Below, one piece after another: positions 33 through 19,510 of a DNA stretch of 21,314 bases (positions within the stretch are counted from its first letter, which is position 1; each line of letters begins with the position of its first letter). The stretch is from Oscillibacter ruminantium GH1 (lineage in GTDB: Bacteria; Bacillota; Clostridia; Oscillospirales; Oscillospiraceae): positions 1 to 21,314 of the forward strand of contig NZ_DF158896.1 in assembly GCF_000307265.1 (NCBI RefSeq), given 5' to 3'. Below the pieces are notes generated by a model. It was not told where the DNA came from and made no database searches. It saw nothing but the letters and a program-made list of their open reading frames with translations. The position numbers and the translations under genes are program-made.

Positions 33-108
33 TCCTCCTTAGCTCAGTTGGTAGAGCACGCGGCTGTTAACCGCGTTGTCGTTGGTTCGAGTCCAACAGG
101 GGGAGCCA
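33..108 (+). tRNA. tRNA-Asn (anticodon GTT)
   Basis: Cloverleaf read by eye. Acceptor tcctcct/aggggga, D-arm agctcagttggtagagc, anticodon loop CTGTTAA with GTT, T-arm gttgg-TTCGAGT-ccaac, and an encoded CCA at 106-108. Confidence 0.85.
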
Positions 109-118
109 AAAGAGCGTA

Positions 119-152
119 TTGCCGCCACTAGGTGGCGGCAATATTTCTCTTT
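119..152 (+). terminator. Intra-cluster hairpin (ttgccgccac-tag-gtggcggcaa) followed by a T-rich tract; possible attenuator or terminator between tRNA-Asn and tRNA-Met
   Basis: Perfect 10-bp inverted repeat at 119-141 followed by tatttctcttt. Confidence 0.4.
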
Positions 153-162
153 AAGTTGAATC

Positions 163-239
163 GGGCCTTTAGCTCAGTTGGTTAGAGCAGTCGGCTCATA
201 ACCGATCGGTCCCGGGTTCGAGTCCCCGAAGGCCCACCA
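163..239 (+). tRNA. tRNA-Met (anticodon CAT); elongator type, but tRNA-Ile2 (lysidine) cannot be excluded
   Basis: Acceptor gggcctt/aaggccc and anticodon loop CTCATAA. The anticodon stem lacks the G29-G31 triplet of initiator tRNAs. T-loop is TTCGAGT and a CCA is encoded at 237-239. Confidence 0.8.
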
Positions 240-276
240 ATTATGGTTTCGCCTGTTGGGGAGCCACAAGCGAGAT

Positions 277-352
277 AGGGGTATAGCTCAGTTGGTAGAG
301 CAGCGGTCTCCAAAACCGCGTGCCGAGGGTTCAAGTCCTTCTGCCCCTGCCA
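277..352 (+). tRNA. tRNA-Trp (anticodon CCA)
   Basis: Acceptor aggggta/tgcccct, anticodon stem gcggt/accgc with loop CTCCAAA, T-arm gaggg-TTCAAGT-ccttc, and CCA at 350-352. Confidence 0.8.
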
Positions 353-360
353 TAAAAGTC

Positions 361-389
361 TTTACAACGGCTGTTGTATGTGATATAAT
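361..389 (+). promoter_or_regulatory. Internal sigma-70-type promoter within the tRNA cluster (TTTACA-17-TATAAT with an extended -10 TG)
   Basis: tttaca at 361-366, a 17-nt spacer ending in tgtga, and TATAAT at 384-389. It lies just upstream of tRNA-Asp and tRNA-Thr. Confidence 0.45.
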
Positions 390-414
390 TCGTACGTTGT
401 CGAGCCGCAAATAT

Positions 415-491
415 GGCCCGGTAGTTCAGTTGGTTAGAACGCTAGCCTGTCACGCTAGAGGTCGACGGTTCGAGCCCGTTCCGGGTCGCCA
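415..491 (+). tRNA. tRNA-Asp (anticodon GTC)
   Basis: Acceptor ggcccgg/ccgggtc, anticodon stem ctagc/gctag with loop CTGTCAC, T-loop TTCGAGC, and CCA at 489-491. Confidence 0.85.
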
Positions 492-496
492 TAAAT

Positions 497-572
<76 letters not shown>

Positions 573-7248: not shown

Positions 7249-7407
7249 CCCCTCTATTAGTGACTAAGTTCATCTACACAATCAAATCTGACTTGCCACG
7301 AAATTGAGCCGCTGCACCTTACTTAGATGCAACGGCTCTTGATATATCTACATGCCCAAAATCGTCCAGAGTATCCTTGCAAAAGGATGGCGAACGGACT
7401 TTTTCAT
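7249..7407 (+). repeat. Intergenic repeat copy A (long form). A 5' part carrying the 10-bp hairpin gagccgctgca/tgcaacggctc, then the core ACATGCCCAAAATCGTCCAGAGTATCCTTGCAAAAGGATGGCGAACGG.
   Basis: About 85% identical over ~160 bp to copy B (7944-8105). The core is shared with copies at 12601, 18194 and 19559. All five copies are in the same orientation. Confidence 0.85.
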
Positions 7408-7444
7408 AGTATCTGTGTCCTTTCCATTGTTCATATTTGTTTAA

Positions 7445-7943: not shown

Positions 7944-8105
7944 CCCTCTGTTAGTGGTTTAACTTCACCTACACAATAAAATCTGACTTATCACGAATTT
8001 GAGCCGTTGCATCTTACTTGACGCAACGGCTCTTGCTTTGTCTACATGCCAAGAATAGTCCAGAGTATCCTTGCATTAGGTCGGTGAACGGATTTTAATT
8101 TTCAT
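7944..8105 (+). repeat. Intergenic repeat copy B (long form, with a perfect 10-bp hairpin gagccgttgc/gcaacggctc at 8001-8032)
   Basis: Aligned by eye with copy A. It begins 14 nt after the stop of the 7583-7930 gene and ends in ...ggtgaacggattttaattttcat. Confidence 0.85.
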
Positions 8106-8125
8106 AAACAGCGCTTCCTTTCATA

Positions 8126-8154
8126 TTGACATTTTTTGATGTGAAGCATATACT
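8126..8154 (+). promoter_or_regulatory. Sigma-70 promoter TTGACA-17-TATACT for the ars operon, followed by a palindrome ATCAA-N6-TTGAT (8162-8177) that is a candidate ArsR operator
   Basis: Consensus -35 and a near-consensus -10 with 17-nt spacing. The inverted repeat lies between the promoter and the arsR RBS. Confidence 0.6.
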
Positions 8155-8192
8155 ATATCATATCAAGATAATTTGATGTGAGGTGATAAACG

Positions 8193-8507
8193 TTGGAGCT
8201 TACTCCGGAGAAGAACGCTAATGTATTTAAGGCATTTTGCGATGAAAAGCGGCTTGCCATTTTGGAACTGCTGCGCAGCGGTGAAAAATGCGCCTGCGTG
8301 CTCATTGATCAAATGGAAATCGGTCAGTCCTCCTTGTCCTATCACATGAAGATTTTATGTGAATCGGGTATTGTCGAAAGCAGACAGGAAGGCAAATGGA
8401 CACATTATAAAATCAGTGAACAGGGCAGCCACGAGGCCATGCTCCTGTTAAAAGCAATTACCACCCCCAATGCAACCGCTGAAGATACTCGTTGTTGCAA
8501 TCAATAA
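8193..8507 (+). CDS. arsR: ArsR/SmtB-family metalloregulator (arsenical resistance operon repressor)
   Basis: TTG start after the RBS gaggtga. The HTH carries a CxC metalloid-binding motif (EKCACVLIDQ) similar to ArsR ELCVCDL. Confidence 0.8.
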   Translation: MELTPEKNANVFKAFCDEKRLAILELLRSGEKCACVLIDQMEIGQSSLSYHMKILCESGIVESRQEGKWTHYKISEQGSHEAMLLLKAITTPNATAEDTRCCNQ

Positions 8508-8600
8508 CGGCCATCTGATGGAAGATGGCTTTTATTCGGCACAACATATCAAGTTTTTTTGATATGACTATTGAATTTAAGAAAGAGAGGCGCTTACCCT

Positions 8601-9614
8601 ATGGAGATCCTTCAAAATACGTGGCTGTTCTTTCAAGACCAAGTGCTTGGAATGAAATGGCTCAACGCCCTAATCGGTAATCTGCTCTCGTTGTTCGGTC
8701 TTGATGTAACAGGACGAATTGGTGGCAGCGTTCAATTCTTTATCTATGATGTACTAAAAATCACCGTACTGCTCTGCGTGCTGATTTTCATCATCTCGTA
8801 CATTCAAAGCTACTTCCCGCCGGAACGAAGCAAGAAAATTATGAGCCGCTTTCACGGCGTGTGGGCAAATATCATGGCAGCACTGCTTGGCACGGTAACG
8901 CCTTTTTGCTCTTGCTCCTCCATACCTCTGTTCATTGGATTTACCAGTGCCGGACTGCCCCTTGGCGTGACTTTTTCCTTTCTGATTTCCTCACCCATGG
9001 TAGACCTCGGGTCGCTCGTTCTGCTCATGAGCATCTTTGGCACAAAGGTCGCTATCGTCTATGTCGTTGTGGGCCTGGTTATCGCGGTCGTTGGCGGTAC
9101 GCTGATTGAAAAACTTCACATGGAAAACTATGTGGAAGAATTCATTCGCTCGGCAAGCGGCGTAGATATTGAATCGCCTGACTTAACCCGCAAAGAGCGT
9201 GTCATTTACGCCAAGGATCAGGTGGTGTCAACCTTCAAAAAAGTTCTGCCGTACATTCTGGTTGGCGTGGGCATCGGAGCTATCATCCACAACTGGATTC
9301 CTGAAAGCTGGATTGAGATGGTGCTTGGCAGCAATAATCCTTTTGGGGTAGTGCTGGCAACTCTGCTTGGCGTTCCCATGTACGCTGACATTTTCGGCAC
9401 GATTCCGGTGGCCGAAGCGCTGCTCTACAAAGGCGCGCAGCTTGGTACGGTTCTCTCCTTTATGATGGCAGTCACAACGCTTTCCCTGCCCTCCATCATC
9501 ATGCTGCGCAAGGCGGTAAAGCCGAAGCTGTTGGGCACATTTATTGCCATCTGCACCATCGGCATTATCATTGTTGGCTATCTGTTTAATATTTTCCAGT
9601 ATCTACTGGTTTAA
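8601..9614 (+). CDS. arsP: ArsP-type permease (DUF318/PF03773 family; conserved TPFCSCS motif)
   Basis: Polytopic membrane protein with GTVTPFCSCSSIP. ATG 8601 is preferred over the track's TTG at 8571, which has no RBS. Confidence 0.7.
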   Translation: MEILQNTWLFFQDQVLGMKWLNALIGNLLSLFGLDVTGRIGGSVQFFIYDVLKITVLLCVLIFIISYIQSYFPPERSKKIMSRFHGVWANIMAALLGTVTPFCSCSSIPLFIGFTSAGLPLGVTFSFLISSPMVDLGSLVLLMSIFGTKVAIVYVVVGLVIAVVGGTLIEKLHMENYVEEFIRSASGVDIESPDLTRKERVIYAKDQVVSTFKKVLPYILVGVGIGAIIHNWIPESWIEMVLGSNNPFGVVLATLLGVPMYADIFGTIPVAEALLYKGAQLGTVLSFMMAVTTLSLPSIIMLRKAVKPKLLGTFIAICTIGIIIVGYLFNIFQYLLV

Positions 9615-9629
9615 TGGGAGGGAAAGAGA

Positions 9630-10403
9630 ATGGCTAAAAACTGGTATCCAGTCATCGATTATCTTGCTTGCACTGAATGCGGAACCTGCGTGGATTTTTG
9701 CTCCCACAGTGTTTATAACAAAGCAAAAGCCCCGTCCCCTGTGGTGATGCAACCCGGAAACTGCATTGACCGTTGCCACGGCTGCGGCAACAAGTGTCCG
9801 GCAGGCGCCATCTCCTATGTAGGCGACGATACTGGCTGGACACCGCCAAACGGCGAATGCAGTGCAAAAAAAAGCGTAGATTGCTGCCGCGGCGGGGCTT
9901 GTGAGGAGGATTCCTCCAAGGCTGTGCTTGTGGAATATCTCTATCTTGATCTCAATACCTGTGACCGCTGTATCGGCGCCGATGCGGTACTGGAAGAAGT
10001 TTTGGGCAGTATCGCGCCCGCTCTGGAGACTGCCGGATATACCATGCGGCTTCAAAAGGTACAGATCGCCACAAAAGAACTGGCGGAGCACTACCGATTC
10101 CTTGCGTCGCCCACCATTCGTGTAAATGGGCAGGATATCTGCGGACCTGTTGCGGAAAACACCTGCGGCTGCTGTGGTGAAATCAGCGGAACCGATGTGA
10201 CCTGTCGTACCTTTGCATACAAAGGTCAAGCCTATGAAGTACCGCCCAAAGCCATGCTGGCCGAAGGAATTCTAAGAGCTGTGCTCGGCATGGTGCAGCC
10301 CGTTTGTGACTGCGGCGAGTATTCACTTCCAGAAAATCTCAAAAACTTCTTTGAGGGAAAAGCTGTGAAGACCGGTTGCTGCCCTGAAGGTACTTGCGGA
10401 TGA
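9630..10403 (+). CDS. 4Fe-4S ferredoxin domain fused to a Cys-rich thioredoxin-like DUF2703-type domain
   Basis: N-terminal CTECGTCVDFC...CIDRCHGCGNKCP ferredoxin motifs. The C-terminal domain carries several CxxC/CC pairs (CDRC, CGCCGE, CDCGE, CCPEGTCG). The RBS is gggaggg. Confidence 0.6.
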   Translation: MAKNWYPVIDYLACTECGTCVDFCSHSVYNKAKAPSPVVMQPGNCIDRCHGCGNKCPAGAISYVGDDTGWTPPNGECSAKKSVDCCRGGACEEDSSKAVLVEYLYLDLNTCDRCIGADAVLEEVLGSIAPALETAGYTMRLQKVQIATKELAEHYRFLASPTIRVNGQDICGPVAENTCGCCGEISGTDVTCRTFAYKGQAYEVPPKAMLAEGILRAVLGMVQPVCDCGEYSLPENLKNFFEGKAVKTGCCPEGTCG

Positions 10404-10453
10404 GTAAACAAAGGATATAAAAACAGTTATTCCACTTTTGATTTTCGCCGTCA

Positions 10454-10705
10454 TTGCCGAGATTGACCTTTACGGTTTTGGGTATCCTTGCGGCCACGGC
10501 GGGCAGCCTTGTATGGAGTGTTTTGCTACTGCTGCTCTATTTCATTGGGCACGGCATTCTCGCCGTGATTGCGGAGCCTTCCATGGGCTTTGCCCAAAAG
10601 CTCTCCCAAAGCGAGAAGTATGGAAAAGCCAGCGCTATTTTGAAAATCGTCATGGGCGCGGTGATCCTGCTCATCGGTTTCTATTTGTTATATTCAGGTT
10701 TCTAA
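10454..10705 (+). pseudogene. CcdA/DsbD-family thiol-disulfide transporter fragment (two C-terminal TM helices only); likely a truncated gene
   Basis: Only 83 aa with 2 TM helices resembling the C-terminal third of CcdA. TTG start with no RBS. An in-frame TGA at 10439 excludes an upstream extension. Confidence 0.4.
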
Positions 10706-10730
10706 TCATGAATTTAAGGAGGTTTTTATT

Positions 10731-11102
10731 ATGGCATTGTTTGGTTTTGGTAAAAAGAAAAATGCAGAGGAAGAATTGGTGCAGTGTGGTTGCGGGGAAA
10801 TGTGCAAGCCCTCCGAAATTGCCGCAAAGAAAGCTGACGAAGAAGCAAAAGTGAGCGGTTCATCCGTCAAGGTGCTTGGCTCGGGCTGTGCAAAGTGCAA
10901 TCAACTGGAAGCGGCTACCTTGGAAGCGCTCAAAGAGCTTGGCATGGATGCCACCATTGACCATGTGACAGACTTTACACAGATCGCTGCTTACGGTGTG
11001 ATGACAACTCCTGCATTGGTTGTGGACGGCAAGGTCGTTTCCTTTGGAAAGGTTTTAAAAAAGGACGAGGTCGTTAAAATCCTGCAAAAAGTACGGGGGT
11101 AA
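10731..11102 (+). CDS. Thioredoxin-family small redox protein (redox-active disulfide protein 2-like, CAKC active site)
   Basis: GSGCAKCNQLEAA thioredoxin-fold CxxC motif and ~120-aa size. Strong RBS aggagg. This type of protein is typical of ars loci. Confidence 0.7.
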   Translation: MALFGFGKKKNAEEELVQCGCGEMCKPSEIAAKKADEEAKVSGSSVKVLGSGCAKCNQLEAATLEALKELGMDATIDHVTDFTQIAAYGVMTTPALVVDGKVVSFGKVLKKDEVVKILQKVRG

Positions 11103-11106
11103 ATTT

Positions 11107-12153
11107 ATGGCAAAGGAAAAATCACAAAGCATTGGCTTCTTTCAAAAATACCTGACCGTGTGGGTTGCTCTCTGTATGACGGCAGGTGTTTTAATTGGTA
11201 AACTTTTACCTGCCGTTCCTGCATTTTTAGGCCGTTTTGAGTATGCCAGAGTTTCTATTCCGGTCGCCATCCTCATTTGGGTGATGATTTATCCCATGAT
11301 GATGAAGGTGAATTTCCAGAGCGTCAAAAATGTGGGGAAAAACCCAAAGGGGTTATTCGTCACATGGGTGACAAACTGGCTCATCAAGCCGTTCACCATG
11401 TACGGTATCGCCGCGCTATTTTTCTATGTGGTTTTTAAGGGCTTGATTGCCCCTGACCTCGCCAAGGAGTATCTGGCGGGTGCAGTACTCTTGGGTGCGG
11501 CACCCTGCACAGCGATGGTGTTCGTCTGGAGCACGCTCACCAAAGGAAACCCTGCCTACACCGTAGTACAGGTAGCAACCAACGATTTGATTATTCTGGT
11601 TGCCTTTGTGCCGATTGTGAAATTCCTACTGGGCGTTTCCAACGTGTCCGTGCCATGGGACACGCTGATTTTATCGGTCATTTTATTTGTAGTCATTCCG
11701 CTTGCGGGCGGTATTCTGACCCGTGTGCTGGTGACAAATCGCAAGGGCACAGAGTATTTTGAAAACACCTTTGTCCATAAATTTGATAATGCCACCAGCA
11801 TTGGTCTGCTGCTCACTTTGGTATTGCTGTTTTCCTTCCAAGGTGATGTGATTTTGAATAATCCGCTGCACATTCTACTCATTGCTGTGCCGCTTGTTTT
11901 GCAAACTTTCCTTATTTTCTTCATCGCTTATTTTGCTTGCAAATGGCTGAAGCTGCCCCATGATATTGCCGCCCCTGCGGGGATGATTGGCGCGTCCAAC
12001 TTCTTTGAACTGTCGGTCGCTGTGGCGATTGCATTGTTTGGTACTACTTCACCGGCGGCTCTTGCCACCGTAGTTGGCGTGCTGACCGAGGTGCCGGTGA
12101 TGCTGTTGCTTGTAAAAATCGCCAACAAAACGAAAGGATGGTTTCCAGTATGA
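11107..12153 (+). CDS. acr3: ACR3-family arsenite efflux transporter
   Basis: 10-TM protein. The N-terminal part (FQKYLTVWVALCMTAGVLIGK...IPVAILIWVMIYPMM...) is characteristic of ACR3/ArsB-type arsenite efflux transporters. Confidence 0.8.
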   Translation: MAKEKSQSIGFFQKYLTVWVALCMTAGVLIGKLLPAVPAFLGRFEYARVSIPVAILIWVMIYPMMMKVNFQSVKNVGKNPKGLFVTWVTNWLIKPFTMYGIAALFFYVVFKGLIAPDLAKEYLAGAVLLGAAPCTAMVFVWSTLTKGNPAYTVVQVATNDLIILVAFVPIVKFLLGVSNVSVPWDTLILSVILFVVIPLAGGILTRVLVTNRKGTEYFENTFVHKFDNATSIGLLLTLVLLFSFQGDVILNNPLHILLIAVPLVLQTFLIFFIAYFACKWLKLPHDIAAPAGMIGASNFFELSVAVAIALFGTTSPAALATVVGVLTEVPVMLLLVKIANKTKGWFPV

Positions 12154-12557
12154 GCAAACCTAAAGTAGCATTTATCTGCGTACACAACTCCTGCCGCAGC
12201 CAAATTGCCGAAGCACTGGGCAAGTACCTTGCGTCTGATGTCTTTGAAAGCTATTCTGCCGGAACGGAAGTAAAGCCGCAAATCAATCAGGATGCTGTGC
12301 GGCTGATGAAGCAGATTTATGGCATCGACATGGAGCGAACTCAGCGCAGTAAGCTGCTGGAGGAGATTCCCCCAGTGGATATCGTGGTGACCATGGGCTG
12401 CAATGTGCAGTGTCCTTTTTTGCCCTGTATGCACAGGGAGGATTGGGGGTTAGATGACCCAACCGGCAAAAGCGATGTGGACTTTGAACGTACTATAAAA
12501 GCAATCCGCTCTAAAATTGAGAATTTGAGAGAGCGAATCGCTGACAACAAACTATAA
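12150..12557 (+). CDS. arsC: Arsenate reductase ArsC, thioredoxin-coupled LMW-PTPase type
   Basis: CVHNSCRS P-loop (CX5R) near the N-terminus with downstream Cys residues. ATG 12150 overlaps the acr3 stop (ATGA); the track's ATG 12138 is the alternative start. Confidence 0.8.
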   Translation: MSKPKVAFICVHNSCRSQIAEALGKYLASDVFESYSAGTEVKPQINQDAVRLMKQIYGIDMERTQRSKLLEEIPPVDIVVTMGCNVQCPFLPCMHREDWGLDDPTGKSDVDFERTIKAIRSKIENLRERIADNKL

Positions 12558-12559
12558 AG

Positions 12560-12592
12560 AACGAGGCTGGCGTTTGTCAGCCTCGTTTTCCT
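12560..12592 (+). terminator. Hairpin terminator after arsC (10-bp stem aacgaggctg/cagcctcgtt, then a U-rich tail)
   Basis: Seen directly in the sequence. The U-tract is interrupted (tttcctattc). Confidence 0.55.
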
Positions 12593-12600
12593 ATTCTCCG

Positions 12601-12646
12601 TTACATCCCCAGTATCGTCCAGAGTATCCTTGCATAAGGATAGTGA
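12601..12646 (+). repeat. Intergenic repeat copy 3 (short, core only: TTACATCCCCAGTATCGTCCAGAGTATCCTTGCATAAGGATAGTGA)
   Basis: Matches the core of copies A, B and 4 at most positions. It sits between the convergent arsC and nifX-like genes. Confidence 0.75.
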
Positions 12647-12659
12647 TATTTTATAATTT

Positions 12660-12695
12660 AAAAAAACAAACCCTGCTGATTTATTTTCAACAGGG
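12660..12695 (-). terminator. Putative terminator of the minus-strand nif-like operon (hairpin plus T-run on the minus strand)
   Basis: On the minus strand: accctg-N15-cagggt followed by tttgttttttt. Confidence 0.4.
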
Positions 12696-12738
12696 TAGTC
12701 TTTTTATAATGCAATTATATCCTTGTGTTCAATGTTTT

Positions 12739-13098
12739 CTATTCGCCGCATTCATCATGATGCTGATGTTCATGGCAAACGGAACCGGTTGTCTTGAGGT
12801 CGCCCTTTAGATAGTTCTCAACAGCAGTTTTGGCGTCGCCAGAAGCTCCTACTACAACTTCAACATTCCTTTCATTAAAAATCTCAACCGCACCTCCGCC
12901 CATACCACCGCTGATAATGACATTGATACCACGATCAGCAAGAAAGTTAGGCAAGAATCCGGGTTTATGCCCGGGGTTAGCAACGGTTTCGCTTTTGATG
13001 ATTTGATTATTTTCAGTATCAAAAATCATGAAACCTTCGCAATGTCCAAAGTGCTCAGTCACCATTCCATTTTCGCTTGCTACTGCAATTTTCAGCAT
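12739..13098 (-). CDS. NifB/NifX/NafY-family dinitrogenase FeMo-cofactor-binding-domain protein with a His-rich C-terminal tail (HEHQHHDECGE)
   Basis: MLKIAVASENGMVTEHFGHCEGFMIFD... pattern of the PF02579 fold. A strong RBS ggaggaaaa sits inside the upstream gene. Confidence 0.7.
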   Translation of the reverse strand: MLKIAVASENGMVTEHFGHCEGFMIFDTENNQIIKSETVANPGHKPGFLPNFLADRGINVIISGGMGGGAVEIFNERNVEVVVGASGDAKTAVENYLKGDLKTTGSVCHEHQHHDECGE

Positions 13099-13099
13099 T

Positions 13100-13939
13100 T
13101 TAGTTTTCCTCCATTTTTTCTAAGATTTTTGCAACCGGCTCAAACCAATTGCCATCGAAAAGCTCTATCATACCCTTGTCACATGCAGCCGAAATTTTTG
13201 GGTCGATAGGTAACTTAGCAAGAACCTTTAAATTATGTTTTTCGGCAATTTCTTCAATATGACTTTCGCCAAATATCTGATAGTCCTTTCCACTATCAGG
13301 GCATTTAAAGTAGGACATGTTTTCCACCAGGCCGATAATGGGAATATTCATCATCTCTGCCATCTTGACAGCCTTTGATACAATCATGGATACAAGCTCC
13401 TGTGGGGACGTCACAACGATAATTCCGTCAACAGCAATAGACTGAAATACCGTAAGAGGAACATCGCCGGTGCCCGGTGGCATATCAATGAACATAAAAT
13501 CTACATCGCTCCAAATAACATCTGTCCAAAACTGTTTTACTGTGCCGGCAATAATCGGCCCTCTCCAGACAACCGGATCAGTATCGTTTTCTAAAAGCAA
13601 ATTAACAGACATGATATCAATCCCGGTCTTCGTTTTAACAGGGAATAAGCCGAACTCACTGCCTTTAGCTTTTTCTTTGATTCCAAATGCCTTAGGAATA
13701 GAAGGTCCGGTAACATCCGCATCTAGAATAGCGGTATGATAGCCCATTCTATTCATTGTAACTGCAAGCATTGAGGTAACAAGTGATTTTCCGACACCGC
13801 CTTTGCCGCTGACAACACCAATAACCTTTTTTACACTGCTCATCTCATGCAGCTTCTCGGAGAAATCTGTTTTTTGTTCTTTTCTTTCTGCGCAGTCCTC
13901 CGAACAACTGCTACAGCTTTGATTGCAATTTTCGCTCAT
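13100..13939 (-). CDS. Mrp/NBP35 (ApbC-like) P-loop ATPase with an N-terminal Cys-rich segment (CNQSCSSCSEDC)
   Basis: Walker A GKGGVGKS, plus ...CPDSGK... and the Mrp signature. RBS aaggag. Confidence 0.8.
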   Translation of the reverse strand: MSENCNQSCSSCSEDCAERKEQKTDFSEKLHEMSSVKKVIGVVSGKGGVGKSLVTSMLAVTMNRMGYHTAILDADVTGPSIPKAFGIKEKAKGSEFGLFPVKTKTGIDIMSVNLLLENDTDPVVWRGPIIAGTVKQFWTDVIWSDVDFMFIDMPPGTGDVPLTVFQSIAVDGIIVVTSPQELVSMIVSKAVKMAEMMNIPIIGLVENMSYFKCPDSGKDYQIFGESHIEEIAEKHNLKVLAKLPIDPKISAACDKGMIELFDGNWFEPVAKILEKMEEN

Positions 13940-13956
13940 AATCTTGCTCCTTTTAT

Positions 13957-14802
13957 TTAGATTACAATTTCACTGCCTGCTGACAGATAATCGATGCTAT
14001 CACCCATAATAGCTTTAAGCCTTTTATAAGGCTCGACACCTGTACAATGGCAAGTGTAAAACTTTGCTTTTGTATCCATTAGGTATTTACCAATTCTATC
14101 TATCATTTTAGAGTCCTCGTTTCCGCCTGAGCGGCTGGAAAGATGAAATCCACCTATCACATAGCCCGGCATTCGACCTTTTAGCGTGTGAAAATGCTCA
14201 AGTATATTTATGATGCCATTATGAGCGCAGCCTGTTACTAATAGGGTTTTCCCGTCTTCCTCTACCACGAGGTTTTGTTCATGTGCAAAGATATCATCTA
14301 TCGTTTGCCCCTTATATTCCTTGAGCAAACCACTGTTTGATTTTGGGCGTGGCTCGTTTTGGACGATATTAGAGAATACTTGGATTCCACTGTTAATAAA
14401 GAAACGGTCTGACGTGAGAATAATTTGTTTGTTTTGATTCAGTTCTTCATCAAGACCGATAAATTCCAATTCATCATTTGGGCGAATAGCATAGTGCTTT
14501 TCAAAAGCGAGACGATGTAGAAATACCTCGGCTTTTGTGTTTTCTTTCAAAAAGGTTTTTAGCCCTCCGCCGTGGTCATAGTGTCCATGCGAAATCACAA
14601 GAAAGTCAACATCAGCAATATTCACATTAAGCTTTTTTGCATTTTGAAGAAACAGCTCGCTTGCGCCCACATCAAACAATATTTTATGTTTCTTTGTTTC
14701 TATATACAGGCTAAGGCCATGCTCGCTGCCAAAGTCTTTTGATATCGAGGTGTTTTCAACCAAAGTTTTAATAAGCATGACTTTAGCCACCACCTTTTTC
14801 AA
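13957..14802 (-). CDS. MBL-fold metallo-hydrolase
   Basis: HxHxDH motif (VISHGHYDHGGG) and a downstream His/Asp pattern. The start may instead be the ATG 24 nt downstream (MLIKTLV). Confidence 0.7.
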   Translation of the reverse strand: MKKVVAKVMLIKTLVENTSISKDFGSEHGLSLYIETKKHKILFDVGASELFLQNAKKLNVNIADVDFLVISHGHYDHGGGLKTFLKENTKAEVFLHRLAFEKHYAIRPNDELEFIGLDEELNQNKQIILTSDRFFINSGIQVFSNIVQNEPRPKSNSGLLKEYKGQTIDDIFAHEQNLVVEEDGKTLLVTGCAHNGIINILEHFHTLKGRMPGYVIGGFHLSSRSGGNEDSKMIDRIGKYLMDTKAKFYTCHCTGVEPYKRLKAIMGDSIDYLSAGSEIVI

Positions 14803-15658
14803 AGAGTAGATTCATTGTTTTGTGATAAACCTCTTTAACCGCCGTACCCGATATACAGTCTATATCTACAACGGTTTGACCATTATTAATCGCTTTGACC
14901 GCGTTAGAGTCAAAGGGTATCCTGCCAATAAAGGGCAGCGCTTGTTTTTTACAAAACTCTTCAATCTTCTCTGTATTCTCAATGTTAGTATCGTATTTGT
15001 TGATACATACCGCTGTCTTTGTTCCGAATTTTGCTGCCGTATTTATAATGCGCTCCATATCGCTGATACCTGATATGGAAGGTTCTGCGACTATCAAAAC
15101 CATATCCACACCACTAAGTGATGCGATGACAGGACAGCCTATTCCGGGAGATCCATCAATAATGGCAAGTTCCGCATCAGCTGCTGTCGCCTTCATTTGC
15201 TTTTTCACCTCAGTTACAAGCATTCCGGAGGTACCACTGCCCATTTTTAGTTGCGCTGTTGAAAAAACTTTTTCTCCATCAGAATACAGCATTAATTCCC
15301 CGGCCACTGCCGGTTTCATAGTTATCGCTTCCACAGGACAAACATACTCACAAACGCCGCAGCCTTCACATGCGAAAGGATCCACTTTGTATTTTTCATC
15401 TATTGAAATAGCATCAAATCGGCAGTTTTGCCTACACTGATCGCATTTAATGCAAAGTTCCGGATCTATATCTGCTTTTGGTAGCCCATAATAATCTGTT
15501 CTTGCAGGTTTAACACTCCATCCGGTAATGAGGTGCAGGTTAGGCGCATCTACATCACAATCCGCATATGCTTTGGCATCAGCAAGCTTTATAAACGCAC
15601 TTGCTATTGTCGTTTTTCCGGTTCCGCCTTTACCGCTAAGGATTAGTAGTTGTTTCAT
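14783..15658 (-). CDS. MinD/ParA-superfamily P-loop ATPase with an inserted double 4Fe-4S ferredoxin domain (COG1149-like)
   Basis: Walker A GKGGTGKTT plus CIKCDQCRQNC...CEGCGVCEYVCP. Confidence 0.8.
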   Translation of the reverse strand: MKQLLILSGKGGTGKTTIASAFIKLADAKAYADCDVDAPNLHLITGWSVKPARTDYYGLPKADIDPELCIKCDQCRQNCRFDAISIDEKYKVDPFACEGCGVCEYVCPVEAITMKPAVAGELMLYSDGEKVFSTAQLKMGSGTSGMLVTEVKKQMKATAADAELAIIDGSPGIGCPVIASLSGVDMVLIVAEPSISGISDMERIINTAAKFGTKTAVCINKYDTNIENTEKIEEFCKKQALPFIGRIPFDSNAVKAINNGQTVVDIDCISGTAVKEVYHKTMNLLFEKGGG

Positions 15659-16493
15659 GCTGCACCTCCTTTGTCACCTTGTTAAGCAGAGAAGAAAACA
15701 ATTCCCGGTATTCCTCATTTTTATTAACGGCGATTTCCGCATTTGAGTTCAAGGTTCCAAGTTCATTGTCAAATGGAATCCTGCCTAAAATCTTAATATT
15801 TTTTTCCAAACAAAACTTCTCAGCAGGATTTTCTCCTTCCAAACATTTGTTAAGAATCACCCCATATGGCCTGTTAAATAACTTGACCAGTTCGTATACC
15901 ATGTTGAGGTTATGAACACCAAACAATGTCGGCTCAGCCACCAGTATGCAATAGTCCGCATCTTTGATGCTCTCCATCACGATACAAGCACTTCCTGGTG
16001 GACAGTCGATAAATGTTTGCTTATTTACTTCCGAACTTTCCTCAAGTAGCTTTTTTATGATAGGAATACCCGTAGCTTCACCGGTGTTCAATACTCCTGT
16101 CCATACCGCCACTTCGCCAGAAACCCCTTTTTTAATTTTGCCAATAACCTTTGCTTTCTCTGTTAGTGCACTTTCAGGACAAACCAAGATACAGCCACCG
16201 CAGGAGTGGCACACATCGTCAAAGACAATCAGTTTGTTTTTAATATAGGCAAGGGCGTTAAAGTTGCAAAATTCAACGCATTTTCGACATCCATTGCATA
16301 ACTCATGATCAACTTTTGGAATCTTTACTGATATTTCTTCCACCTGAACCCCTTCAGGCTTAAAAAACAGATGTCCATTCGGCTCTTCTACATCACAGTC
16401 TATATATGTGGATGCTTTCGCTGCCGCAGCTAAATTCACCGATACCAGTGTTTTTCCTGTGCCGCCCTTGCCGCTTAGCACAGCTATTCTCAT
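15636..16493 (-). CDS. Second MinD/ParA-type ATPase with a 4Fe-4S ferredoxin insert (paralog of the previous gene)
   Basis: MRIAVLSGKGGTGKT... plus CNGCRKCVEFC...CHSCGGCILVCP. The start was moved to the internal ATG at 16493, 1 nt after the upstream stop; the track start at 16556 would overlap by 62 nt. Confidence 0.75.
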   Translation of the reverse strand: MRIAVLSGKGGTGKTLVSVNLAAAAKASTYIDCDVEEPNGHLFFKPEGVQVEEISVKIPKVDHELCNGCRKCVEFCNFNALAYIKNKLIVFDDVCHSCGGCILVCPESALTEKAKVIGKIKKGVSGEVAVWTGVLNTGEATGIPIIKKLLEESSEVNKQTFIDCPPGSACIVMESIKDADYCILVAEPTLFGVHNLNMVYELVKLFNRPYGVILNKCLEGENPAEKFCLEKNIKILGRIPFDNELGTLNSNAEIAVNKNEEYRELFSSLLNKVTKEVQHETTTNP

Positions 16494-16494
16494 A

Positions 16495-16863
16495 TTAATT
16501 GCCCCCGTGCCCGTGAAATCCGGCATGAAATTCATCCAGCAAAGGTAATTTCCCATCTATAAAAGCATCAATATTATCTTTGGCTGAACCGGTTATCGTT
16601 TTATAAATTTTGATTTCAGCGGGTTTTAGCACTTCAGCAGCATTTTCTCCTAAGCGGGGAGTGAGTAAAACATCTGCTTTGTTATCAACTATTATTTGTG
16701 CAGCTTTAATCCCTGCACCTCCTGTGCTTGCCGCTGCACTGTTGTCAATAAATATACTTTCCTTAGTTTCTACATCGTAAATAAGAAAATAGGGAGTACG
16801 TCCAAATGACACACATACATTCGACTCCAAGGTTTTCTCATCTACTGGAATTGCTATTTTCAT
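16495..16863 (-). CDS. NifX/NifB-like FeMo-cofactor-binding-domain protein
   Basis: [30 protein letters not shown]... of the PF02579 family. Confidence 0.7.
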   Translation of the reverse strand: MKIAIPVDEKTLESNVCVSFGRTPYFLIYDVETKESIFIDNSAAASTGGAGIKAAQIIVDNKADVLLTPRLGENAAEVLKPAEIKIYKTITGSAKDNIDAFIDGKLPLLDEFHAGFHGHGGN

Positions 16864-17248
16864 AAGAATCCTCCGTTCTATTTTTGTTTAAATAATTCTC
16901 AATTGCGTTGCGTAGCGCACTCACACCTAAATTTGAGCAATGAACCTTATTTTCAGGAAGTCCATCTAAAGCCTGGATAATGTCTTCTTCCGTAATATTC
17001 AATGCTTCCTCTAAGGTTTTACCCTTTGCTAATACCGATGTCATACTGGATGTTGCAATTGAAGCACAACAGCCAAACACAAGATAGCTGATTTCATCTA
17101 CACGATTATCTTTTACCTTTAAATAAACGGTCAAATAATCTCCGCAGGAAGGATCCCCGTAGTCTCCCTCGGCATCTGCATCGGGCATACTATGAGTATT
17201 TTGCGGACACATAAAATGCTCAATTACTTTTTCTGAATATATAATCAA
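16838..17248 (-). CDS. NifU/IscU-like Fe-S cluster assembly scaffold (N-terminal domain type)
   Basis: Conserved Cys triad context (PSCGDY...VFGCCAS...HCS). Confidence 0.65.
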
Positions 17249-17622
17249 CCACCTCGATCCGTGTCATCTGTAAAGCATCGACCACGCCTATGCCTATGAC
17301 AGCCGCGACCACAACCATTCCCCAACCCTTCACAAAGCCGATATTCGCCACCCTCAATCAGTAACACCTTTCCATTTACTAAAGATTCAGCCAGCTTTTT
17401 TCTGGCTTCAATGTAAATGCCTTGAACAGTGCTACGAGCAATATTCATTTGCTTGGCACACTCTTCTTGAGTAAAGCCTTCCAAATCGATAAGTCTTATG
17501 GTCTCATACTCGTCTACAGTCATGTTTACATGGTTTTCTGTGTCGGCAGGTGAATCAAGAGGCCCAAATCTATTGCTTTCAGGCAAACAGCAAACTTTTC
17601 TCCACTTCATCGGTCTCGCCAT
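17245..17622 (-). CDS. DUF134 (UPF0251) predicted DNA-binding protein with a C-terminal Cys/His-rich tail
   Basis: [56 protein letters not shown] matches DUF134. RBS ggaggtga. Confidence 0.7.
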
Positions 17623-17685
17623 AATTCATCACCTCCATCCTAATCAGAAATAACCAGAGCGTCCTCCGGTTATCCCTGATGCCCG

Positions 17686-17964
17686 TTATAGGTTCTCCAT
17701 TTGCTTTTCAATAACTTCAAGTCGATCTTGCAACATGGCTTTCTGTTCATTCAGCAGCTCTTTTTGTGTTTTTGAGGAGGTCTGATTAATCGCAGAACCC
17801 CTACCAAAACCGCGACCGAAACCGCGTCTGCAAGCAAGTCCAAGGCCTAATCCCATTCCGAGACCAGCTCCGTACTTTACTACATTAGCACCTGTGCAAA
17901 GCCCTAATCCTCTTCCAGTCATTGATCCCGCACCCATTGGGCCGGTTCCATCCCTTCTTGGCAT
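17686..17964 (-). CDS. DUF5320-type small protein (Gly-rich N-terminal part plus a C-terminal coiled coil)
   Basis: MPRRDGTGPMGAGSMTGRGLG... Start moved to the internal ATG at 17964, which follows the RBS aaggaggtg by 7 nt. Confidence 0.65.
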   Translation of the reverse strand: MPRRDGTGPMGAGSMTGRGLGLCTGANVVKYGAGLGMGLGLGLACRRGFGRGFGRGSAINQTSSKTQKELLNEQKAMLQDRLEVIEKQMENL

Positions 17965-18008
17965 AATATTCACCTCCTTATGGTTTGTGGCATATGCCAT
18001 CTATTCTT

Positions 18009-18036
18009 ATTATACCCCGTTTATGTCATATGTCAA
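18009..18036 (-). promoter_or_regulatory. Near-consensus sigma-70 promoter (TTGACA-16-TATAAT) driving the minus-strand nif-like operon
   Basis: On the minus strand: TTGACA (18036-18031), a 16-nt spacer, and TATAAT (18014-18009). It is followed by a strong RBS before the DUF5320 gene. Confidence 0.7.
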
Positions 18037-18193
18037 TAACTTTTTGAAATAATTAAAAAAGCTGCCAATCTATAGTTTTGATTAATAATTTTGTGAACTG
18101 GAGGCAAAAATACAAACTATATACTTAAATATTTTGATGGGTTATAATAATAAAGATTAGCAGGCCGGTCCCACAAGATAAGGAGCCAGCTTG

Positions 18194-18266
18194 CTCTTTT
18201 CATCACATCCCCAAAATCGTCCAGGGTATCCTTGCAAAAAGATGGTGAGCGAATTTTAATTTTCAT
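18194..18266 (+). repeat. Intergenic repeat copy 4 (core plus the 3' tail ...ggtgagcgaattttaattttcat), fused to the promoter/IR module
   Basis: ctcttttcatcacatccccaaaatcgtccagggtatccttgcaaaaagatggtgagcgaattttaattttcat. Its first 31 nt match copy 5 at 30 of 31 positions. Confidence 0.85.
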
Positions 18267-18436: not shown

Positions 18437-19510
18437 GTGATAAAAGACCTATTTATAAATATGACCATTCTCATAAGTTTCATAAGTTTAGGAGGCCAAG
18501 TCGCAAAAAAGCATAATTATGAAGAAAATAATAGTCTAAGGACAAAAATCATTATTGGAACGATATTAGGTACTTTGGGCTGCTTTCTCATGCTGTTTAG
18601 CGTCAAAGTCAATGACAATACAATTATTGATTTTAGAAATATAGCCATAGTTATATCAGCACTTTTCGGGGGGCCTATACCTATTTTTATTACCACTGCA
18701 CTAATCGCTGTTTTTAGAGTAGCATACTTTGGGGTTAACATCGCTTCCCTTATAGGAGTTGTTGCAGCAGTCTTAAATTCTTTTGGCTGTTGGTACATAG
18801 CGAGGCGTAATATTAAAACATGGAGAAAGTGGGTTTACTCAATAATTTATGTTTTAGTTGTTGCAACCATAGCACTTTTTCTAATACTGGGAAACAGAAG
18901 TGACTTTCTTATAATAATATCTATATATTGGATTTCGTTCTGCTTAGTTTCAGCAATAATATATTGGTACATTAAATACAGCCTTGCCGCAAACAGATTA
19001 TTTAATAGACTACAGAAGGAATCTACCAAGGATTTTCTTACAGGTCTAAATAATGTTAGACAATTTGACTTTGTTTTTAACAGCACCATGAAAAATGCTC
19101 TTAATAAGGAAGAAAGCCTTTCTTTGTTAATGGTGGATATTGATTTTTTTAAAAAAGTTAATGACACCTACGGACACATGGAGGGGGATATTGTATTGAA
19201 AGAGTTGGGGAAAATATTATCTGAAAACTGCAGGCATTTTGATGAAGTTTCCAGAAATGGCGGTGAAGAATTTTCAGTGCTACTTCCCGATTGCGCCTAC
19301 CCGCGGGCAATGCAAATAGCGGAACGAATAAAAGATGCTGTTAAAAATCATTCTTTCACATTATCTACAGGTGTGCAAATTCAAATTACTATTTCAATAG
19401 GAGTTGCGTCATACCCTGAAACCATACAGGATATTGAAAAACTTATGGAGAAGGCAGACACGGCACTGTATGCTGCGAAGCGATCGGGGAGAAATAGGGT
19501 TTGTTCATAA
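18437..19510 (+). CDS. Membrane sensor diguanylate cyclase. The N-terminal ~190 aa form a 5-6 TM sensor (5TMR-LYT-like); the C-terminal part is a GGDEF domain with an intact GGEEF active site and an RxxD I-site.
   Basis: GTG start after aaggaaggg. LSLLMVDIDFFKKVNDTYGH...RHFDEVSRNGGEEF... Confidence 0.8.
   Translation: MIKDLFINMTILISFISLGGQVAKKHNYEENNSLRTKIIIGTILGTLGCFLMLFSVKVNDNTIIDFRNIAIVISALFGGPIPIFITTALIAVFRVAYFGVNIASLIGVVAAVLNSFGCWYIARRNIKTWRKWVYSIIYVLVVATIALFLILGNRSDFLIIISIYWISFCLVSAIIYWYIKYSLAANRLFNRLQKESTKDFLTGLNNVRQFDFVFNSTMKNALNKEESLSLLMVDIDFFKKVNDTYGHMEGDIVLKELGKILSENCRHFDEVSRNGGEEFSVLLPDCAYPRAMQIAERIKDAVKNHSFTLSTGVQIQITISIGVASYPETIQDIEKLMEKADTALYAAKRSGRNRVCS

Follow-up and report, generated by a model that had tools for sequence, protein, structure and literature searches.

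A putative self-regulated and horizontally mobile gene cassette of the orange-protein type in Oscillibacter ruminantium GH1

The DNA analyzed in this study (hereafter, the window) is a stretch of 21,314 nucleotides of Oscillibacter ruminantium GH1 (contig NZ_DF158896.1, positions 1 to 21,314). It contains an operon of nine genes (g1-g9; Table 1), which is best explained as a self-contained, self-regulated and horizontally mobile cassette of the orange-protein (ORP) type; our confidence in this explanation as a whole, a blend of our own estimates, is moderate. The cassette is of a known kind, namely that of the ORP complex. The new features are (i) the organization of the cassette as a single sigma-70 operon, (ii) a split MrpORP without the CXXC motif, (iii) the added DUF5320, NifU and Tflp genes, (iv) the proposed control by DUF134, operators and a hairpin, and (v) carriage on mobile DNA across phyla. 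None of the regulatory and mobility features was found in the literature searched, the scope of which did not include the founding ORP paper of 2011.

Gene content and homology of the core

A preliminary description of this DNA, made from the sequence alone, had listed nine genes behind a TTGACA-16-TATAAT promoter. The open reading frame (ORF) list, Pfam and a promoter scan confirmed the genes, their order and the promoter: nine consecutive ORFs occupy the minus strand from 18000 to 12739, and the genes, tightly packed (18036 to 12739), are bounded by the promoter at one end and the terminator at the other. The start of g1 was placed at the ATG at 17964 (ribosome-binding site, RBS, AAGGAGG) instead of 18000, on the basis of the RBS and of the gene calls of relatives, and the starts of g5 and g7 were corrected to 16493 and 14778, which match the gene calls on related contigs. 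After these corrections the successive junctions from g1 to g9 measure +63, -4, -26, +1, -23, +4, +17 and +1 nt, and a Shine-Dalgarno-like (GGAGG-like) site precedes the downstream gene of every junction.

Judging from sequence homology, the core of the cassette is very probably of the ORP type and homologous to components of the Desulfovibrio ORP complex. The products of g8 and g9 match the NCBIfam MrpORP equivalog model NF041136 over positions 1-246 (350 bits) and 265-365 (118 bits), respectively, and when the two proteins were joined in silico they scored 462.9 bits (curated cutoff, 450) in a single stretch (1-364/365). The motifs of g9 (HFGHCE, PGHKPGFLP and a C-terminal CHEH) are those described for MrpORP's Di-Nase domain. 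By these model matches, g9 is identified as the detached C-terminal domain of MrpORP and not, as previously supposed, a second NifX-like gene. Fused MrpORP forms are present in two relatives (L081 and L091), and the cluster of Peptoclostridium acidaminophilum has the order DUF134, NifX, ATPase, ATPase and a fused 410-aa protein, labeled in RefSeq "iron-sulfur cluster carrier protein MrpORP".

The remaining core proteins fit the same pattern of homology. The g4 product matches MTH1175, its best solved relative (4.7e-17), TM1290 (1.8e-16) and the orange protein of Desulfovibrio gigas (2WFB; 5.4e-13 over residues 2-108). The ATPases encoded by g5 and g6 are paralogs with 31% identity, and the eight ferredoxin Cys residues that each of them has, as well as several further Cys, are invariant in 75-80 homologs. 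The folds closest to an AlphaFold2 model of g6 (predicted local distance difference test score, pLDDT, 79.7) are those of MinD, FlhG and FleN, followed by nitrogenase Fe protein and CooC.

The ORP complex includes Orp3 and Orp4, which are MinD-like and carry two [4Fe-4S] motifs each, as well as Orp5, Orp8 and Orp9 (PMC6345978). Orp8 is the orange protein, which in D. gigas carries a Mo-Cu-S cluster, and MrpORP (Orp9) is the Fe-S carrier of the complex, able to load Orp3/Orp4 in vitro (PMC6345978). The cassette shares with the ORP cluster of D. vulgaris Hildenborough and D. alaskensis (orp3-4-5, orp7-8-9 and orpR) (i) paired MinD-type ATPases with two [4Fe-4S] each, (ii) orange-protein homologs that consist of a single PF02579 domain, (iii) an Mrp/NBP35 protein with a PF02579 Di-Nase partner (HFGHCE, proline-rich and C-terminal Cys/His motifs), (iv) an occurrence in anaerobes only, and (v) dedicated control by a Cys-rich sensor, which for the cassette is a prediction. 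In contrast to the Desulfovibrio cluster, which consists of two divergent sigma-54 operons controlled by OrpR and integration host factor, the cassette forms one sigma-70-type operon with DUF134 and two palindromic operators, and no sigma-54 enhancer-binding protein is encoded in the window. Moreover, two separate genes encode the cassette MrpORP, which is devoid of the CXXC motif of its Desulfovibrio counterpart, while DUF5320, NifU, the Tflp-like protein of the metallo-beta-lactamase (MBL) fold and the carriage on mobile DNA are additional to the Desulfovibrio system.

Three of the genes, g8, g7 and g3, encode proteins of helper type. The deviant Walker A motif of g8 (SGKGGVGKS) is invariant in 39 homologs, and an N-terminal CX3CX2CX3C motif and Cys253 are conserved. 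This protein shares GKGGVGKS and the fold with carriers of the Mrp/NBP35/ApbC type (2PH1/3KB1 of Archaeoglobus fulgidus, Cfd1/Nbp35; 241 bits to 2PH1), and its N-terminal four-Cys motif recalls Nbp35. However, the bridging-cluster motif of those carriers, CPxC, is replaced by CPDS in g8, which aligns to CPNC of 2PH1 and 3KB1, and by CPDN in most cassette relatives (28/39; CPDC in 9/39).

The g7 product is a full-length homolog of Tflp of Thermoanaerobacter tengcongensis (PDB 2P4Z). Tflp is a ferredoxin-like, iron-dependent protein of the MBL fold, whose Fe-S center is held when reduced; the type is defined by HxHxDH, a Cys in place of Asp in motif 4 and a Cys following the motif-5 His (10.1101/2020.04.16.045138). 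All three signatures are shared by g7, in which HGHYDH, GC184AH and Cys243-His244-Cys245 are conserved in 34-36 of 36 homologs and align to VTGCSH and GHCTG of 2P4Z; the CHC sequence provides one extra conserved Cys. Given these Tflp-specific cysteines and the match to 2P4Z, g7 is assigned to the Tflp-type MBL-fold iron/Fe-S proteins, and its former designation as an MBL hydrolase is abandoned. With this assignment, every structural gene of the operon would encode a metal-cluster protein. In g3, C35, D37, C60, H103 and C104, which correspond to the three cluster-ligand Cys and the Asp and His of U-type scaffolds, are present and conserved; the protein scores 125.6 bits with PF01592 and 149.8 bits with TIGR03419 (NifU_clost), which is below the cutoff of 187.9.

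Table 1. Coordinates and characteristics of the cassette genes and control elements in the window.
Feature	Position	Strand	Characteristics
Sigma-70-type promoter	18009..18036	-	TTGACA 18036-18031, 16-nt spacer, TATAAT 18014-18009
Operator O1	18024..18035	unstranded	12-bp palindrome, TGACATATGACA on gene strand; embeds -35 hexamer
Operator O2	17988..17999	unstranded	Perfect palindrome TGGCATATGCCA, between -10 and RBS
g1, DUF5320 (92 aa)	17686..17964	-	Pfam 1.9e-27
Intercistronic RNA hairpin	17643..17680	-	17-bp stem; -28.3 kcal/mol, z = -4.35
g2, DUF134/UPF0251 (125 aa)	17245..17622	-	Pfam 1.8e-21; sigma-70 region-4-like helix-turn-helix (HTH)
g3, putative NifU_N/IscU-type Fe-S scaffold	16838..17248	-	Pfam NifU_N 1.8e-36
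g4, single-domain PF02579 (NifX-like)	16495..16863	-	Nitro_FeMo-Co 1.7e-21; orange-protein/MTH1175/TM1290 type
g5, MinD-type P-loop ATPase (GKGGTGKT)	15636..16493	-	CbiA/MinD with inserted 2x[4Fe-4S] ferredoxin domain; Orp3/Orp4-like
g6, MinD-type ATPase, paralog of g5	14783..15658	-	CbiA/MinD with 2x[4Fe-4S] insert
g7, putative Tflp-type MBL-fold iron/Fe-S protein	13957..14778	-	Lactamase_B 1.4e-11; 2P4Z 3e-41
g8, putative Mrp/NBP35 P-loop half of split MrpORP	13100..13939	-	ParA/NUBPL (Mrp) 1.3e-88
g9, putative PF02579 Di-Nase half of split MrpORP	12739..13098	-	Nitro_FeMo-Co 8.9e-23
Intrinsic operon terminator	12670..12696	-	Hairpin -23.2 kcal/mol, z = -5.5, followed by U-run

Recurrence, gene loss and horizontal mobility

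A scan of one genome per species with g6 as the anchor yielded at least 531 relatives, the best 80 loci of which (73-98% identity) were analyzed; the counts given below use loci with enough flanking DNA, i.e. 58 upstream, 64 downstream and 51 on both sides. The gene order DUF5320, DUF134, [NifU], NifXa, MinDa, MinDb, [MBL], [Mrp], NifXb (optional genes in brackets) is invariant and recurs in at least 80 species, so that the neighborhood conservation proposed as a check in the preliminary description was indeed observed. The near-constant genes are NifXa (58/58 loci), MinDa (57/58), DUF134 (53/58), DUF5320 (47/58), NifXb (52/64) and MinDb, whereas NifU (21/58), Mrp (36/64) and MBL (32/64) are optional and decay repeatedly; all nine genes occur together in 10 of 51 loci. 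In the close relatives L007, L004 and L006, nifU was lost by different internal deletions, which left different remnants, and in Clostridium tyrobutyricum it is frameshifted. Mrp and MBL are fragmented in some other loci.

All-against-all clustering of the flanking ORFs revealed no further conserved neighbor in the 80 loci, the best non-artefact family being present in 9/80. The cassette is therefore self-contained, and it is the helper-type genes (scaffold, carrier and Tflp) that are dispensable. The search for nitrogenase genes was also negative: structural genes are absent from the ORFs of the window, as had been noted before, and nifHDK, nifEN and nifB were found neither among these ORFs nor as recurrent neighbors in the 80 loci. 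The picture of an Fe-S-rich, nif-like operon without nitrogenase that recurs, specifically in anaerobes, is correct. The accompanying statement that the combination has no assigned function requires a correction: the role is still unassigned (PMC8359166), but the core already bears a name, that of the ORP complex, and has been characterized in part (PMC6345978).

These results bear on the suggestion that the operon assembles or traffics a complex metallocluster for an unknown client. According to this explanation, the cassette would be a dedicated line for assembly and trafficking, similar to that of NifB, NifX, NafY and NifH, building a heterometal cofactor for an enzyme encoded elsewhere. 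Nitrogenase cofactor maturation likewise pairs PF02579 cluster carriers with a SIMIBI-class Fe-S ATPase, PF02579 being the cofactor-binding domain of NifB, NifX and NafY (PMC5524996); the fold of g6 is also similar to those of CooC and nitrogenase Fe protein, the operon has both a scaffold and a carrier gene, and the orange protein of D. gigas binds a Mo-Cu-S cluster (PMC6345978). However, the cassette differs from the nitrogenase pathway in lacking nifHDK, nifEN and the radical-SAM protein NifB, and its ATPases, closest to MinD, contain an inserted di-cluster ferredoxin domain. No client-like neighbor is conserved in the 80 loci, the scaffold and carrier genes are among the optional, decaying parts, and the only demonstrated targets of MrpORP are Orp3/4 of its own complex (PMC6345978). 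Transfer between phyla as a self-sufficient unit (see below) is also hard to reconcile with one specific host enzyme. With no conserved neighbor and with NifU and Mrp dispensable, assembly for a client is unsupported, and we consider it unlikely.

The cassette is almost certainly mobile and has moved recently between genera and phyla. Homology of the window to other contigs starts exactly at the stop codon of g9 (12740) and stops just upstream of the -35 hexamer (18044). Two cultured isolates, Thermoclostridium caenicola and Herbinix hemicellulosilytica, share 99.2% nucleotide identity over 10.8 kb of the cassette region; a comparison involving Clostridium sp. N3C gave 99.6% over 8.4 kb, and the cassettes of a Synergistaceae metagenome-assembled genome (MAG) and Veillonella absiana are 98.6-99.5% identical. 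The protein g6 has homologs with an identity of 88% or more in Oscillospiraceae, C. tyrobutyricum, Tepidanaerobacter, Tissierella and even Paludibacter; at the species level the aa sequence identity of g6 reaches 89-92% in Flexilinea/Anaerolineaceae (Chloroflexota), 83% in Synergistaceae/Veillonella, 80% in Elusimicrobiota and 78% in Bdellovibrionota. The contigs of these species-level hits range in length from 90 kb to 1.25 Mb. The G+C content of the cassette is 0.40-0.43 in the recently spread clade, compared with 0.32-0.56 in the flanks, and the distant copies are ameliorated.

Large serine recombinases occur in pairs at the flanks of the cassette in 12/51 loci, e.g. beside a tRNA/rRNA U5-methyltransferase gene, and conjugation, toxin-antitoxin and insertion sequence genes occur in other flanks. 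In four metagenome contigs (L007-L010), an eight-gene, nifU-deleted cassette has the 3' end of the U5-methyltransferase gene on one side and two genes for large serine recombinases on the other, in chromosomal contexts that otherwise differ; this arrangement resembles a site-specific integrative element of which the cassette is the cargo. One Christensenellales contig (JAXGLZ010000003.1; L014 and L020) carries two full nine-gene cassettes approximately 200 kb apart, whose g6 homologs show 91% and 89% aa sequence identity to g6 and whose G+C content is 0.42-0.43 (approximate values), compared with 0.52-0.56 in the flanks. Phages were rejected as vehicles, since relatives of the cassette are absent from IMG/VR contigs, and so were plasmids, carriage on which is near-absent (3 matching records, all of them large replicons).

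The location beside recombinases also raises the question of whether the ATPases and the MBL-fold protein might serve the mobile element itself, in anti-phage defense or in element maintenance. Recombinase, toxin-antitoxin and conjugation genes are present in the flanks, and the MBL domain gives weak generic matches to defense models. On the other hand, PADLOC detected no significant system, but only weak generic MBL and P-loop matches, which led us to reject a defense system; in addition, the cassette is absent from viral contigs, g7 bears the Tflp iron/Fe-S signature and not that of a nuclease, and older copies are G+C-ameliorated in ordinary chromosomal contexts. This possibility is hardly credible.

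A role as a MinD-like positioning or cell-division device, which was the original proposal for the Desulfovibrio ORP complex, is very unlikely. It agrees with the best fold matches of g6 (MinD, FlhG and FleN), with the morphological defects of Desulfovibrio orp/orpR mutants and with the polar location of MrpORP (PMC6345978, PMC8359166). A core division function is, however, not to be expected of a recently transferred accessory cassette that has several decaying genes and that can be duplicated on a single contig (L014 and L020). No MinC/MinE-type partner genes were found in the window or the 80 loci, and every structural protein is a metal-cluster protein. The NCBIfam MinD scores are far below the cutoff.

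Promoter, operators and predicted regulators

The promoter of the cassette is the sole 12/12 match in 8 kb; by our own arithmetic, approximately 0.008 perfect matches are expected in 21 kb on both strands. It is kept in more than 50 related loci, and an alignment of upstream regions revealed a layout conserved across phyla: GTTATTGACATATGnCAnAAAC, TATAAT, TGRCATATGYCAnAAAC, AAGGAGGTGAA and ATG. Within this layout, a 12-bp palindrome, TGRCATATGYCA, is present in two copies at the promoter; these copies, O1 and O2, are its only matches in the window. O2 begins 36 bp after the start of O1, and the spacing modes across loci are 36 and 39 bp. The operator pair was found in 51 of the 58 loci with upstream DNA, and P. 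acidaminophilum has the same promoter-operator architecture. Positions 3 and 10 of the operator vary symmetrically (R/Y).

A few additional promoter-operator units located elsewhere precede detached NifU+NifX, Mrp, or RG-rich-protein+MBL units, and thus define a small regulon. In L089 (19990-20885; also in L088), a second promoter with two operators drives a gene for a Gly/Gln/Arg-rich low-complexity protein (MMRRNKMRATMAQGQGFGQGFGQGRGQGRG...), followed by an MBL gene of the Tflp-like type, which is detached; the same control applies here to a further cationic Gly-rich protein. Since the operator element is transferred between phyla, a cognate regulator should accompany it, and DUF134 is the only DNA-binding candidate.

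The core of DUF134 (residues 30-90; AlphaFold2 pLDDT of approximately 80-85) superposes on region 4 of extracytoplasmic function (ECF) sigma factors at 0.4-0.8 Å over 44-49 residues. Region 4 is the domain of sigma factors that binds the -35 element. Cys11, Cys55, Cys97 and Cys108 of DUF134 are invariant, and Cys104 is nearly so. Residue 64, the second of the recognition helix, covaries with the symmetric operator position (Ser with G:C, Thr with A:T) in 49/54 loci. The mutual information for this residue is 0.77-0.82 bits, compared with at most 0.62 for any other DUF134 column, and the residue-operator combination switched at least 5 times on the DUF134 tree and 6 times on the g6 tree.

It is probable that DUF134 bound to the operators represses the operon. 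It would act as an autoregulated repressor that occludes the -35 hexamer and the transcription start, and whose cysteines sense a cluster, metal or redox signal. DUF134 may therefore be regarded as a proposed functional analog of OrpR, the Fe-S redox sensor of Desulfovibrio, which is confined to Deltaproteobacteria (PMC8359166). The literature searched contained nothing relevant on the operator sequence, DUF134/UPF0251/COG1342, DUF5320 or COG1149, and Rfam detected no known RNAs or riboswitches in the leader or the gaps, its only hits being five tRNAs (33-569).

A further control element may be located between g1 and g2. The hairpin in this 63-nt gap has a GC core (CCGGAG-GACG-CUCUGG) followed by UUAUUUCU, a U-rich run, for which reason it is probably a leaky terminator (attenuator) or an mRNA stabilizer; in either case, DUF5320 would exceed the downstream products. 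The hairpin is present in nearly all loci, with compensatory changes in 9 of the 12 consensus pairs. Because of this terminator-like structure, the co-transcription of g1 with g2-g9, implied by the term operon in the preliminary description, is probably partial.

DUF5320 itself consists of an N-terminal region of 62 aa that is rich in Gly (31%), has 7 Arg residues and a pI of 11.6, and of a C-terminus with a predicted coiled coil; one Cys is conserved. A possible parallel is IssA (PF2025) of Pyrococcus furiosus, which acts as a store of iron and sulfur in the form of thioferrate, bound by its cationic tail (PMC5524996). Common to IssA and the cassette are a PF02579 domain of the MTH1175 type, a sulfide-rich anaerobic setting and a cationic, Gly-rich, partly aromatic disordered segment. 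In IssA, however, this tail is fused to the PF02579 domain, whereas in the cassette the Gly/Arg-rich segment is part of the separate DUF5320 protein, g4 (ending in ...FHAGFHGHGGN) and g9 (ending in ...CHEHQHHDECGE) being devoid of an IssA-like tail. Furthermore, no ATPases have been described for IssA.

Proposed function and surrounding DNA

The proposed mechanism is as follows. A DUF134 dimer on O1, which holds the -35 hexamer, and on O2, just past the -10 hexamer, would repress transcription, and its release would be set by cluster, redox or metal status through an Fe-S cluster or metal ligated by the five conserved Cys residues. The hairpin past g1 would let only part of the transcripts pass, resulting in an excess of the cationic Gly/Arg-rich DUF5320. 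NifU would make Fe-S clusters, which the split MrpORP (g8/g9) would hand over to a g5/g6 ATPase heterodimer. This ATPase, with the Tflp-like g7 as its putative redox partner, would load, convert or release a non-covalent inorganic metal-sulfur cluster on g4 and g9. DUF5320 may neutralize an anionic cluster or polymer, doing in trans what the tail does in IssA. NifU, Mrp and Tflp would constitute a helper (maturation) kit that is carried along and becomes dispensable once the cassette has settled in its host.

As to the physiological role, we can offer only a tentative suggestion, namely that the cassette may handle, buffer or store metal-sulfide species under the low redox potentials of sulfidic habitats. 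This suggestion is consistent with the expression of orp genes, which in sulfidic cultures occurs only at about -425 mV (PMC8359166), and with the habitats in which the carriers live, i.e. digesters and guts. Among genomic markers of anaerobes, PF02579 proteins belong to the strongest, being present in 65% of anaerobes and in 8% of aerobes (PMC13386939). A more far-reaching and rather doubtful idea joins these elements. DUF134/UPF0251 might be an unrecognized family of Cys-ligated (Fe-S/metal) sensor-repressors, whose HTH reads a palindrome of two -35-like half-sites (TGACAT) and competes directly with sigma for the -35 element; together with DUF5320, which would serve either in trans as a tail of the IssA kind or, on the conserved hairpin, as a nucleic-acid binder of the RGG type, it might control a mobile, plug-in ORP module that sequesters or processes metal-sulfide clusters in anaerobes.

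Several points weigh against the explanation presented here. The comparison of g5/g6 with Orp3/Orp4 (DVU2103/DVU2104) relies on domain descriptions, and the physiological role of ORP was still called "unclear" in 2021 (PMC8359166). Because the second Cys of the CXXC motif, which binds the transferable cluster in MrpORP, is missing in g8, its carrier chemistry may differ. With regard to DUF134, the Foldseek E-values for its small HTH are weak (0.04-0.3), its Cys-bearing ends are modeled with low confidence, and its covariation with the operator could in part be due to the joint inheritance of a linked 5' module. The chemical resemblance of the DUF5320 N-terminal region to the IssA tail is an analogy of composition only. 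Finally, MAG binning could have misassigned some of the inter-phylum copies.

If the far-reaching idea outlined above holds, selection for this trait would account for the spread of the cassette in digesters and guts, and the cassette would constitute a portable minimal model for solving the function of the ORP complex. The simple sigma-70 promoter, the defined operator pair, DUF134 as a candidate sensor and the division into core and helper genes make the function of the ORP complex experimentally tractable. For DUF134, a concrete role open to testing would be obtained for the first time, and for DUF5320 a more tentative role. The cassette also shows that Fe-S-rich machinery is able to move between phyla together with its own maturation factors.

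The cassette is met tail-to-tail in the window by an ars operon of unusual composition (8193-12557, plus strand), encoding ArsR, an ArsP-like permease (PF03773), Fer4+DUF2703, Thioredoxin_3, Acr3 and an ArsC of the low-molecular-weight protein tyrosine phosphatase type. The two operons make up a block of 10 kb (8042-18123), which shares 99.8-99.9% identity with an ENA contig (L001), whose outer flanks contain unrelated mobile-element genes. This arrangement could indicate an accessory role of the cassette in arsenic or metalloid resistance, e.g. in the handling of As-S species, especially as the block recurs in an unrelated contig and ArsC or ArsP genes adjoin the cassette in L004, L006, L044, L051, L068 and L082. 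Nevertheless, only 4/51 species loci with full flanks have any ars gene within 10 kb, and the ars genes are equipped with an ArsR of their own and are devoid of TGRCATATGYCA sites. The low frequency led us to reject an arsenic-related function, which is highly improbable, and to interpret the joining as co-carriage: co-location on mobile DNA explains the link.

The borders of the gene modules in the window are marked exactly by four direct copies of a 60-80-nt element with the core TGCAAGGATACYCTGGACGA (at approximately 7330-7411, 8044-8105, 12603-12664 and 18205-18266; minus-strand sense). An RBS and a short ORF (MKIKIRSPSFCKDTLDDFGDV...) stand at the start of each copy, and a GC hairpin follows three of the copies. 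The block in common with L001 has its left end at one copy; L001 also contains the element, which is absent from the 80 species loci. The element may be a recombination scar or an att-like site.

The G+C content of the window is mosaic (0.57 at 1-4 kb, 0.38-0.45 at 4.5-8.5 kb, 0.42 in the cassette, 0.33 at 18-19 kb and 0.52 at 19.5-21 kb), which suggests an island of accreted foreign modules. A gene for a 5TM-LYT/GGDEF diguanylate cyclase (18437-19510, plus strand) adjoins the cassette promoter; GGDEF genes are also found near the cassette in L004, L028, L035, L041 and L083, which may be due to chance. The left end of the window contains five tRNA genes in a row (33-569, plus strand). In the G+C-rich segment at 1551-2879, two ORFs of approximately 430 aa overlap almost fully on opposite strands; the one on the plus strand encodes a Band_7/SPFH domain, and the opposite one is probably a shadow ORF. 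Downstream of this segment are the RNA-repair genes for RtcB and a truncated RlaP, followed by DUF3841.

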